Shown here in pieces: positions 61,722 to 63,741 of a stretch of 64,000 nucleotides of DNA. A program made the position numbers and the translations under genes. The DNA is taken from the IMG/VR virus record IMGVR_UViG_2565956719_000002. One strand, written 5' to 3'. Positions within the stretch are counted from its first letter, which is position 1, and each line of letters opens with the position of its first letter. The notes beneath the pieces were generated by a model. It made no database searches and was not told the DNA's origin. It saw nothing but the letters and a program-made list of their open reading frames with translations. The DNA comes from a virus. Taxonomy: Duplodnaviria > Heunggongvirae > Uroviricota > Caudoviricetes.

Positions 61722-61732
61722 ATTAGAGCAAT
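61716..61732 (-). promoter_or_regulatory. Perfect C1-operator-like 17-mer facing the tRNA cluster
   Basis: Minus strand ATTGCTCTAATAAATTT, 17/17; overlaps the dmt stop. Confidence 0.6.
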
Positions 61733-63741
61733 ATACCTAAGACGTCATGAGCAACACCTCGAGTGTCCCCCTTACAAGACACAGAACGTCTGGCAAAAAG
61801 AGGTTCCACTCTGAAGCCATTGTCATGATAAAGCTCTCTGATGTTTGGCGCGCCACTGTTAGTAATGAGAACCTTTGCACCTCGGCGATGAGCATCCGTC
61901 AACAGAGACACCAGGCGTTTTTGCTCTTCAAACTTAAAGTCATGACCGGAATAGTTCGTGAATCCCTCTGTATTTGGAAGCGGTTCATACGGCGGATCAC
62001 AGAAGATGATATCTCCTTCTCCGGCAGCTTCAATCACCGCAGCAAAATCACCACATACAAACTCAGAACGCCCTTCCGCACCGAGGAAGGCTTCCATCTC
62101 CTGTAATGGGAAATACGGAGTTTTATACTTCCCATAACCGACATTGAACTCACCGGCCTGGTTGTAACGCGTCAATCCGTTAAAACAATGTCGGTTCAGG
62201 AACAAAAACGCCGCTGCGCGATGTAAATCATCATAGACTTGTTTGTTAAACGCATTCCGTACTGCCAGGTATCCTTCCTGTGTGTTGTAGTCCTGGAAAA
62301 ACCGATGCGCCAGTGTGATAAGTGAATGCGCCTCGCGTTGCAGAGTCTTGTAAAAGTTAATCAGGTCAGCATTCACATCATTTAGCAGATTTTCCTGGTA
62401 TCCGGCATTCGTGAAGACAGCTCCGCCACCGACAAAAGGTTCGATCAGGCGCTTCCCTTCTGGCAAATAGCGAAAGATTTGTTCCAGAACACCAAATTTT
62501 CCACCAGCCCATTTGAATATGGACCGTTCGAATTCTGCCGCTGGTTTAACTTTTCGCTCTTTTGTTTCATTCCCTTCATTCTGCCGACATGCAGCCTTGG
62601 TAATCCGATCGCCAATCCAGCGCATTACTGGTATCGCCATACTATTACCGATCGCTTTGTAACGCGGTCCGTCAGCTGCAAGCATCGCGGCCTCTTCTTC
62701 GTTCAAATCAGGATAGTTTTTGCGAAGGTATGCCAGTTCATCTGAAGAAACTTTTTTACGCTTTTCCGTAGGGATCAATGTATGTCCATCAGGAAAACCT
62801 TGTAGCCTTTCACATTCGACAGGGGTAAGACGGCGCATTCTACCGTCGCCGAGCAATACAATTGGTGCTTCATGGTTACATGTCAAAGTTGGTGCCGAAT
62901 TATCGGTTTTTATCTCAGCCCCTCCTTGCCCATGTGCCATGGCAACTATGTTTGTATCATCGCAAGATCTGATAGCGATGTTTGAAGTATATCTGGTAGT
63001 TTCCTTCCCCTCGCCTCTGCTCGGCGCAATATTCCGGCGCACGCCTTCGAACTCAAAAAGTACCGTTGCGGGATCGAGGTCTGTTCGAGCACTTGCGACA
63101 ACAAACACGCGTCGGCGTCGTTGTGCCACTCCGAAGTATTGGGCATCAAAGATTCTCCAGGCCACTTTTCGCTGCGGTCCATAAATACAACCACACTGCG
63201 GCCACTTTGGAGCATGGCAACCGGTTTTGACATCCCACCGCCAGAACGCGTTACTTTTTCCTGATTCAGGTCGATCACCTGGTTCGAATGGCGCATCTTC
63301 TCCAGCCAATCCGGCAAGGAAACATCCGAAGGCGTTATCTGCCGATGACAAGACTCCTGGGACATTTTCCCAGACGATAACTGCTGGTTTGAGAAATGAC
63401 TCAGCCCGTTTGTCGTCAATTGCATTTGCAAGCTCCACATACTTTAAAGTTAGCGCGCCACGCTCATCATCAAGCCCACCACGTAATCCCGCGATACTGA
63501 ATGCCTGACAAGGTGTTCCCCCGACGAGCACATCAGGGAATTCGATTTCCCCTGCCAGGACTTTTTTGGCAAGTTTTGTCATGTCGCCAAGATTGGCGAC
63601 ATGGGGCCAACGGTGCGCAAGAACGGCAGATGGAAAAGACTCGATTTCTGCAAACCACACCGGACGCATACCCAACGGTTCCCAGGCAATACTCGCGGCT
63701 TCAATTCCACTGCAAACAGATCCATAGCACAGCTCTTTCAC
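61723..63741 (-). CDS. dmt: Fused DNA methyltransferase: N-terminal C5-cytosine domain, C-terminal Dam-like N6-adenine domain
   Basis: 672 aa; [12 protein letters not shown] and ENVPG (C5 type) in first half; KWAGGK and DPPY (Dam type) in second half. Confidence 0.8.

Follow-up and report, generated by a model that had tools for sequence, protein, structure and literature searches.

The P7-type dmt allele of a P1-like phage-plasmid: a fused cytosine-C5 and Dam-type methyltransferase with an exchangeable recognition cassette

On the minus strand of the stretch of phage DNA analyzed here (64,000 nucleotides, referred to as the window), an open reading frame at 61723-63741 (672 aa, GTG start; ORF list) raises the question of which gene it represents, what the two methyltransferases that it appears to encode would modify, and to what end. 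The reading that we favor, with a probability of roughly 0.85, is that it is a P7-type Punavirus dmt gene whose product comprises two independent AdoMet-dependent methyltransferases, with a swappable recognition cassette in the cytosine-C5 (C5) half and an anti-restriction role.

Identity and setting of the gene

The gene itself is already known, as the window ORF is the previously described dmt of a P1-like phage-plasmid (Punavirus). Its nucleotide sequence is 98% identical to P1-like phage records and 95% identical to 'dam' of P7, and the locus as a whole is 95-98% identical to P1-like and P7 records over 2.5 kb. Using the ORF list, nucleotide identity and protein alignment, the CDS (61723..63741, minus strand) was classed as the P7-type allele of dmt, which in phage P1 encodes a bifunctional DNA methyltransferase. 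The encoded protein is 95% identical to P7 Dam and 90% identical to P1 Dmt overall, and departs from P1 by scattered substitutions and otherwise only within one variable block (protein alignment). The ORF occupies the same locus as P1 dmt and shares its synteny, with hrdC upstream, the Oban operator pair at the stop codon, and genes for tRNA-Asn and tRNA-Thr downstream. In GenBank, the P1 gene is annotated as 'bifunctional DNA methyltransferase; methylates DNA at N6 adenine in GATC sequences and perhaps at C5 cytosine', and the P7 counterpart carries the gene name "dam" and the annotation 'hypothetical bifunctional DNA methyltransferase'. In agreement with both annotations, PF00145 was found N-terminally and PF02086 C-terminally in a single polypeptide, and the fusion proposed in an earlier note on this DNA therefore stands, as do all four of the motifs that it named (PCQ and ENV in the N-terminal half, KWAGGK and DPPY in the C-terminal half). 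What that note had overlooked is that this is a textbook P1 gene, that the C5 target-recognition region is swapped relative to P1, and that an intein-bearing allele is common; as first written, its finding rediscovers a gene that the description of the P1 genome already contained, and adds little alone. In phage 673R5, the gene is split into two CDS.

The GTG start codon of dmt (63741-63739) and the TGA stop codon of hrdC (63740-63738) share a GTGA tetranucleotide (63738..63741, minus strand; read from the sequence), and the P1 and P7 annotations have the same gene order and the same 4-nt hrdC/dmt overlap. This overlap suggests translational coupling of dmt to hrdC within a uhr-hrdC-dmt operon. 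By synteny with P1 and P7, dmt would be the last gene of this operon, which is C1-repressed, and would be made once C1 repression is lifted, with transcription presumably from Pdmt (promoter and operator placed beyond the end of the window) and translation probably coupled to that of hrdC through the GTGA.

At the other end of the gene, the operator-like pair that had been noticed over the stop codon proved to be the operator annotated as Oban in P1. The first C1 operator, Oban-a (61716..61732, minus strand; pattern scan, P1 annotation), contains the dmt stop codon (61723-61725), matches the consensus ATTGCTCTAATAAATTT at 17/17 positions, and is the only perfect match to the C1 operator consensus within the 64-kb window. 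The second, Oban-b (61705..61721, plus strand; pattern scan, P1 and P7 annotations), matches at 15/17 positions and overlaps Oban-a by 6 bp. The P1 annotation describes a bivalent C1 operator, Oban a/b (formerly Op72a/b), that covers P1ban, the promoter from which the tRNA-ban operon downstream is transcribed; the last dmt codons also serve as a C1 operator pair and as the -35 region for the operon that follows (tRNAs, ban). An Rfam scan of a 'dicF-like region' downstream of dmt returned no DicF match, and a generic sigma-70 scan of the dmt gene returned nothing above shuffled expectation.

The Dam half and its GATC targets

The Dam-type (D12, alpha-class) N6-adenine methyltransferase half spans aa 410-672 (61726..62514, minus strand) and was delimited using PF02086 (aa 411-643, E 1.8e-56, 192.2 bits; Pfam), TIGR00571 dam (247 bits against a cut-off of 114.85; NCBIfam), and alignment to E. 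coli Dam (PDB 2G1P, 4RTJ), which covers Dmt aa 405-669 (265 aa, E 1.6e-56) with DPPY and FxGxG kept. KWAGGK lies at aa 410-415 (62497-62514) and DPPY at aa 582-585 (61987-61998); the AdoMet motif EPFVGGGAV (FVGGG, aa 436-440) precedes DPPY, which is the alpha-class order, and an FNGLTRYN segment is also present. E. coli Dam positions K9, N120, L122, R124, N126 and Y138 are conserved in this half, and Y119F, P134G and R137K are the differences recorded. We take these aligned residues, including those of the FNGLTRYN segment, to be DNA-contact positions in the E. coli Dam structure. The chromosomal Dam equivalog NF008152 scored 241.7 bits, below its cut-off of 441, and by sequence the half is a Dam-family member and not a chromosomal Dam orthologue. 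Its dN/dS is 0.04-0.14. A charged linker of about 30 aa (aa 381-409; 62515..62601, minus strand; taken between the Pfam domain limits) joins it to the C5 half, and the end of the AlphaFold model within this linker (aa 389-400) has pLDDT <50.

We infer that the Dam half would methylate GATC, a specificity transferred from P1 Dmt, from which it differs by 2 aa (99% identity). In P1, pac must be methylated at GATC, and the phage cannot do without dmt in Dam- hosts (Sternberg & Coulby 1990, cited by PMC12707154). A hexamer cluster scan located the pac site of the window at 33973..34131, where seven TGATCA/G hexamers form two groups (3 + 4). The earlier proposal that the Dam half would methylate the pac hexamers agrees with the hexamers in place and with a Dam-pac link published for P1 (PMC12707154). 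On transfer from P1, where it was shown, N6-adenine methylation in GATC would render the seven hexamers competent for cleavage by the packaging enzyme. The Dam half may also mark other GATC clusters, for example that upstream of cre, where a scan located four TGATCA sites with spacing of 8, 8 and 53 bp (28262..28336). P7 has four annotated 'Dam recognition sites within the regulatory region of cre' (at 37, 90, 98 and 106) with the same spacing in the opposite orientation, and the cluster in the window is likely a second Dam target.

Licensing of pac could alternatively fall not to the 672-aa fusion but to a Dam-only protein of about 320 aa, made alongside it late in infection by transcription from an Lpa-dependent promoter inside the gene and translation from the M353 ATG. 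A 19-mer inside dmt (62735..62753, minus strand), of the form AAGTTTCTT-N4-TGAACT, is exactly that annotated in P7 as 'predicted late promoter LPdam2', and lies about 45 nt upstream of the in-frame ATG (62683-62685; internal start scan), which is preceded by a GAGG Shine-Dalgarno sequence 6 nt upstream and itself precedes the whole Dam domain. The element was compared to the six annotated P7 late promoters (-22 box AAGTGACTT/AAGTTACTT); its -22 box AAGTTTCTT matches AAGTTACTT at 8/9 positions, but its -10 element TGAACT is poor relative to that set. Moreover, the P1 annotation is without such a promoter, and the conservation at 62735-62753 is already accounted for by coding function. We consider a separate late product unlikely and assign licensing, provisionally, to the fusion polypeptide.

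The C5 half and its exchangeable cassette

The C5-cytosine methyltransferase half spans aa 1-380 (62602..63741, minus strand; Pfam, NCBIfam, alignment and model) and contains motifs I, II, III, IV, VI, VIII, IX and X in canonical order. PF00145 matched in 3 stretches (E 9.3e-36, 124.3 bits, cut-off 22; Pfam), and TIGR00675 dcm scored 116.8 bits against a cut-off of 100.65 (NCBIfam). PCQ is at aa 77-79 (within 63496-63519), ENV at aa 125-127 (63355-63369), motif I (CSGIEA) at aa 10-15, motif VIII (QRRRRVF) at aa 207-213, motif IX at aa 303-317, and motif X at aa 363-372, with GNS at aa 365-367. The catalytic cysteine, which the earlier note had left to a careful alignment, is present: phmmer against M.HhaI placed C78 on Cys81, ENV on E119-N-V, QRRRR on Q-K-R-E-R, and motif IX on RKLHPRECARVMGYPD. 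In an alignment of 71 homologues (52-66% identity), CSGIE, GGTPCQ, ENV, Q207/R209/R211, RRL-P-E and GNS are invariant. Motif I reads C10-S-G-I-E-A rather than the classical FxGxG and aligns to the motif I region of HhaI; because it is invariant across the family, it is probably a family trait and not decay. An AlphaFold model of aa 1-400 has a confident core, with M.HhaI, M.HaeIII and DNMT3 as best Foldseek matches, and pLDDT <50 at residues 239-286 (recognition region). The dN/dS of the C5 core (0.10-0.22) indicates purifying selection. From these features, we infer that the C5 half would be active in cytosine-C5 methylation, with Cys78 as the nucleophile and with ENV, QxRxR and GNS also in place.

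The variable target-recognition cassette of this half was mapped to 62830..63021 (minus strand) using a nucleotide identity profile, protein alignments and dN/dS. As far as gene nt 720, the window, P1 and SJ46 sequences are 100% identical; identity then drops to at most 40% and returns to 90-97% from about nt 915. Between these sharp boundaries the cassette is replaced wholesale (about 62 aa in the window vs about 144 aa in P1 and about 197 aa in SJ46). The block has a dS of about 1 and a dN of about 0.9. The window block is of P7 type and differs from that of P1; in plasmid records, the P7-type block was found 184 times and the P1-type block 257 times.

The only recurrent module in the window allele is recognition module A (aa 270-294, 25 aa; 62860..62934, minus strand; motif recurrence in homologues). 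Module A is also present in SJ46 Dmt, in representatives P0121, P0126, P0129, P0139, P0149, P0154 and P0186, and in 28 of the 119 matches of the P0186 search. The variable region of the window allele is 89 aa long, toward the short end for the family (minimum 59, median 237). Multispecificity, taken as at least two tandem units between motifs VIII and IX, is not indicated for an allele with one recurrent module; SJ46, P1 and many representatives have two to five. As judged from such recurrences, the relatives appear to be mosaics of short modules that vary in number and order. Diversity was taken from a representative search, since the first homologue search was saturated by near-identical P1-family clusters, and the regex module map, which labeled 44 of 112 variable regions, shows shuffling and is not a complete catalogue. 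The second modules of P1 and SJ46 were not equated, BLAST of the variable regions being weak (E 0.004 or worse); their likeness rests on recurrent motifs across many representatives, not on pairwise statistics. Solved structures were also tried as a source for the cytosine target; a single match, to 3lx6 (E 1.8e-4), reached into the variable region, and it was carried by motif IX and was uninformative on specificity. The earlier description of the C5 specificity as unknown from sequence is still correct, as a literature search returned no paper defining the target of P1 Dmt; it likewise returned no report of 5-methylcytosine formed by the window allele or any Dmt allele, and nothing on cassette polymorphism of P1 dmt or on a dmt intein.

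That intein is carried by about 30% of plasmid-borne dmt alleles, in which 341 aa are inserted exactly before the catalytic Cys. The site corresponds to the Cys78 codon of PCQ (63508..63510, minus strand), as determined by aligning the window protein to P0044, an allele of 1013 aa (...GGTP|CFTAGH...VVHN|CQAFS), and intein-bearing alleles have precomputed Pfam matches to Hint_2 and LAGLIDADG_3. In the window the site is unoccupied, and GGTPCQAFS runs uninterrupted between P77 and C78. Retention of Cys as the +1 residue in intein alleles is as expected if the spliced enzyme matters. It is thus a frequent and easily testable intein, placed at the active site of a methyltransferase that an enterobacterial mobile element carries.

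In the window allele, the cytosine target may be set by the single short module (aa 270-294) inside the swappable cassette, and cassette exchange between P1 relatives would change the sites protected. By analogy and from genomic context, the C5 role is most likely self-protection of phage DNA from host restriction enzymes. Next to a stand-alone one-module homologue, P0186, there is no nuclease-like gene, and a gene with an Endonuclease_NS match lies about 3.6 kb away, in a neighborhood (SSB, AcaB, DUF2857, DUF3158) that resembles an integrative conjugative element (ICE). The C5 half might instead methylate DNA for regulation (phage or host epigenetic) or for a non-classical counter-defense rather than for protection from Type II enzymes, given that many orphan methyltransferases are regulatory and that P1 already has the Dar antirestriction system (both PMC12707154) as well as its own Type III system. 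However, the rapidly exchanged cassettes and the modules arrayed in tandem among relatives are what an arms race against diverse restriction specificities should produce, a pattern that a fixed regulatory site would not predict, and the C5 homologues reside on phages, plasmids and the ICE-like element; we hold this alternative to be improbable. Even less probable is that the C5 half has lost catalysis and persists as a relic, serving as a DNA-binding domain or scaffold for the Dam half, with only GATC methylation of consequence: Dam activity is the only documented activity of P1 Dmt (PMC12707154), annotators wrote 'perhaps' for C5, motif I is non-canonical, certain plasmid copies seem to lack annotation as an intact gene (only rdgC listed) and the 673R5 gene is in two CDS, but all C5 catalytic residues are intact and invariant over the 71 homologues, core dN/dS is near that of the Dam half, cassettes are swapped with the frame kept, and hundreds of stand-alone C5 homologues without any Dam domain imply that the C5 domain has a function of its own. 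Self-protection by an active C5 enzyme is retained as the favored role. In E. coli and Salmonella, P1-like phage-plasmids abundantly carry resistance genes, so the restriction barriers defeated by Dmt would bear on the host range of these elements.

Comparison with known systems

P1 Dmt (AAQ14041, 754 aa; formerly 'dam') has the same locus, neighbors, start and operator overlap at the stop as the window gene. Outside the variable block, few scattered residues differ, with 2 in the Dam half, whereas the P1 block is unalignable with that of the window and holds two different recurrent modules (C-D); the cytosine target of P1 Dmt is therefore probably different. P7 Dam (AAQ07538, 672 aa) matches the window protein in length, cassette and architecture, with 2 aa differences inside the cassette and scattered substitutions making up the 5% by which the proteins differ. 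The C5 half shares motif order, catalytic residues and fold with M.HhaI and M.HaeIII, but is only about 16-18% identical to them, has an insertion of about 70 aa between motifs VI and VIII and the CSGIEA form of motif I, and is without a partner restriction enzyme. Compared to E. coli Dam and to the T4 and DpnM Dam-family enzymes, the Dam half is fused behind another enzyme.

The closest parallel to the module arrays is found in C5 enzymes of Bacillus phages (SPR, phi3T, rho11s) and in M.BssHII, whose variable region between motifs VIII and IX holds target-recognizing units that can stand in tandem (PMC12707154). The Bacillus multispecific enzymes are orphan, phage-borne C5 methyltransferases with a recurring-module layout similar to that in relatives of the window Dmt; unlike Dmt they are without a Dam fusion, the window Dmt has one recurrent module, and the likeness drawn here is one of layout. 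Tentatively, the C5 half could belong to a very large, apparently uncharacterized orphan family with arrays of short, shuffled modules between motifs VIII and IX, in which at least three P1-like cassette alleles exist and the intein spreads independently. If so, the Dmt C5 family, carried by phages, plasmids and ICEs of proteobacteria, would be a Gram-negative counterpart to the multispecific enzymes of Bacillus phages, and the window and P7 alleles with one module, P1 with two, and SJ46 with three or more would each protect different cytosine sites. The natural cassette alleles constitute a ready-made experiment on target recognition by C5 methyltransferases.

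The dmt gene and its operon

The dmt gene is an uninterrupted ORF of 672 codons with a GTG start (61723-63741, minus strand). In Pfam searches the N-terminal part of its product matched PF00145 (C5-cytosine DNA methylase, E 9.3e-36), in three stretches broken by insertions in the protein, and residues 411-643 matched PF02086 (D12-class N6-adenine methylase, E 1.8e-56); the NCBIfam dcm and dam models both exceeded their curated cut-offs. PCQ (residues 77-79) and ENV (125-127) were located in the N-terminal half and KWAGGK (410-415) and DPPY (582-585) in the C-terminal half, as the earlier note had placed them, and C5 motifs I, II, III, VIII, IX and X and the Dam AdoMet motif were also found, in canonical order. 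Judged as sequence matches, these lie far beyond chance. With both domains in one ORF, the single-polypeptide C5 and Dam-like fusion described in the earlier note is confirmed as an observation and supported as an interpretation.

The gene is the already known dmt of P1, or dam of P7. The 2.5 kb around the ORF are 95-98% identical to P1-like phages, and synteny with P1 and P7 is complete (hrdC, dmt, operator pair, two tRNA genes). The P1 record names dmt a 'bifunctional DNA methyltransferase', GATC N6 adenine and 'perhaps' C5 cytosine, and the P7 record calls the same gene, likewise 672 aa, 'dam'. Read directly from the sequence, the TGA stop of hrdC, which lies upstream, overlaps the dmt GTG start as GTGA; the two tRNA genes (60899-61049) lie downstream. 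The operator-like pair reported to overlap the dmt stop codon is real: a site at 61716-61732, on the stop codon, matches the C1 operator consensus at 17/17 positions, the sole perfect match in 64 kb by pattern scan, and a second at 61705-61721, on the opposite strand, matches at 15/17. Both positions coincide with the bivalent operator Oban a/b as annotated in P1 and in P7, and the pair therefore serves to control the following operon (tRNAs, ban) rather than dmt. Pdmt and Odmt, ~1.2 kb upstream of dmt in P1, would fall past the window end. The 17-bp consensus had 15 window matches with at most 3 mismatches (e.g. at 24684, 28515, 45715 and 61716), which as predicted sites outline the phage's C1 regulon.

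The counterpart of the P1 'dicF-like region' is 61506-61607 (minus strand), which directly follows the ban promoter and is closed by a strong terminator-like hairpin at 61523-61542 (minus strand; GCCCATCTTCGGGTGGGC followed by T7). An Rfam search of this region for DicF gave no match at E 0.01 or better. At 60198-60317 (minus strand) Rfam matched the STnc100 sRNA family at 37.9 bits (E 6.8e-06), which is below its gathering score of 47; this segment lies just upstream of the position equivalent to upl in P1.

Conservation of the two active sites

Loss of the catalytic Cys from the C5 half, which the earlier note named as counting against its reading, was not seen in a phmmer alignment with M.HhaI, in which Cys78 falls on catalytic Cys81, ENV on E119-N-V and QRRRR on QKRER, and a 15-residue segment pairs with M.HhaI RKLHPRECARVMGYPD. 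The window protein was also aligned with two P1-family alleles that are nearly identical to it and with 68 homologues at greater distance (52-66% identity); CSGIE, GGTPCQ, ENV, Q207/R209/R211, RRL-P-E and GNS were invariant throughout. An AlphaFold model of residues 1-400 (pTM 0.77) was confident in the catalytic core and of low confidence at the catalytic loop and residues 239-286, and its top structural matches were M.HhaI, M.HaeIII and DNMT3. The C5 core has a dN/dS of 0.10-0.22. The C5 domain thus looks functional and is probably catalytically active, with two reservations: motif I is CSGIEA and not FxGxG, though invariantly so across the family, and a literature search found no report of 5mC activity for Dmt.

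The Dam half aligned with the solved E. coli Dam across 265 residues (E 1.6e-56) and departs from P1 Dmt at just two positions; its dN/dS, computed over five alleles of the P1 family, is 0.04-0.14. It scores below the chromosomal-Dam equivalog cut-off and therefore belongs to the family without being an orthologue. Relative to E. coli Dam, K9, N120, L122, R124, N126 and Y138 are kept, and Y119 is changed to F, P134 to G and R137 to K; all of these positions are DNA-contact residues in the EcoDam-DNA structure.

A hexamer scan located pac at 33973-34131, where seven TGATCA/G hexamers form two groups, one of three and one of four. PMC12707154, citing Sternberg & Coulby 1990, states that GATC methylation is required for P1 pac cleavage and that dmt is essential for P1 in Dam- hosts. 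Action of the Dam half on the pac hexamers, as previously suggested, agrees with both, and the window allele would be GATC-specific. Four further TGATCA sites (28262-28336; spacing 8, 8 and 53 bp) mirror the annotated 'Dam recognition sites' of the P7 cre regulatory region, and loxP and cre should therefore adjoin them.

A separate Dam-only product, made from an internal promoter and M353 besides the fusion, is a speculative alternative: 62735-62753 is identical to the P7 'predicted late promoter LPdam2' and is followed by the M353 ATG with a GAGG ribosome-binding site, but its -10 element is weak.

Recognition cassettes and intein alleles

Between the fusion proteins of the window and P7 and that of P1, the difference is essentially confined between motifs VIII and IX, the variable block being ~144 aa in P1 versus ~62 aa in the window. 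DNA identity among the window, P1 and SJ46 is 100% to gene nt 720, then ≤40%, and 90-97% from ~nt 915, which bounds the cassette at ~62830-63021. Within the block dS is ~1 and dN ~0.9, indicating replacement rather than divergence. Phage SJ46 has a third dmt allele, longer again, whose product is 807 aa (525-2948 of its locus, L005). Of the PLSDB plasmid records, 497 contain the conserved 5' part of dmt; the P7-type cassette is present in 184 records and the P1-type cassette in 257. Some P1-like plasmids (matches H47-H49) list no dmt CDS across the match, and in the phage vB_EcoM-673R5 record (H17) dmt is annotated as two CDS, one an adenine methylase and the other a cytosine methylase; these copies may be frameshifted or disrupted alleles.

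In the commonest database allele (1013 aa) the window protein is interrupted by 341 extra residues, which match the Hint and LAGLIDADG families in Pfam, contain two LAGLIDADG motifs and sit exactly between Pro77 and catalytic Cys78 (GGTP/CFTAGH...VVHN/CQAFS in representative P0044). This intein has the canonical Cys1, ...HN and Cys+1 residues; in the window its site is empty (63508-63513, minus strand). It assorts independently of the recognition cassette, all four combinations occurring: P1-type without intein (P1, 754 aa), P7-type without (window and P7, 672 aa), P1-type with (RCS47, 1095 aa; intein at 3759-4781 of locus L003) and P7-type with (OP279344, locus L004, 1013 aa). In PLSDB, 133 plasmid records contain the intein DNA, and distant stand-alone C5 methylases also carry insertions at this position. 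A literature search found no paper mentioning a dmt intein.

A modular C5 family and a proposed role

Among 1.84 billion cluster representatives, thousands of relatives were found. The C5 core, including an unusual insert of ~70 aa that separates motifs VI and VIII, is 55-70% identical in proteins of 335-1148 aa, most without a Dam domain; a motif screen flagged C5-Dam fusions in 15/153 sequences (150 representatives plus the window, P1 and SJ46), including P0122, P0124 and P0126-P0130. Motifs VIII and IX lie 59-417 aa apart (median 237; window 89, near the minimum), and the intervening region is a mosaic of short recurring segments differing in number and order (A-D-G, B-A-E, B-J-A, A-E-J, J-G and G-D, in ad hoc labels). 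The window has module A only, whose ends are strongly conserved around a variable centre of 5-7 residues, and which is found again in SJ46, seven representatives and 28/119 relatives of P0186, a Pseudomonas enzyme of 352 aa that stands alone. Individual cassettes compared pairwise give weak statistics; the modules may be autonomous target-recognising units. No nuclease-like gene directly adjoins the Pseudomonas enzyme, though one with an Endonuclease_NS match lies ~3.6 kb away, and the surrounding genes resemble those of an integrative conjugative element.

We propose that dmt would be expressed early from a C1-controlled operon, coupled to hrdC, and that an active C5 half, its one specificity determined by module A, would protect the phage's own DNA (antirestriction), cassette exchange shifting the protected sites. 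As dmt itself is already known, the modest interest lies in its cytosine specificity, allelic recognition cassettes and intein allele. The SJ46 protein (807 aa) and the more distant fusions among P0122-P0130 (749-1148 aa) have long variable regions that combine several recurring modules in differing order, which suggests multispecific enzymes. Bacillus temperate phages carry multispecific C5 methyltransferases (review PMC12707154), whose layout resembles the modular variable regions of the dmt relatives.
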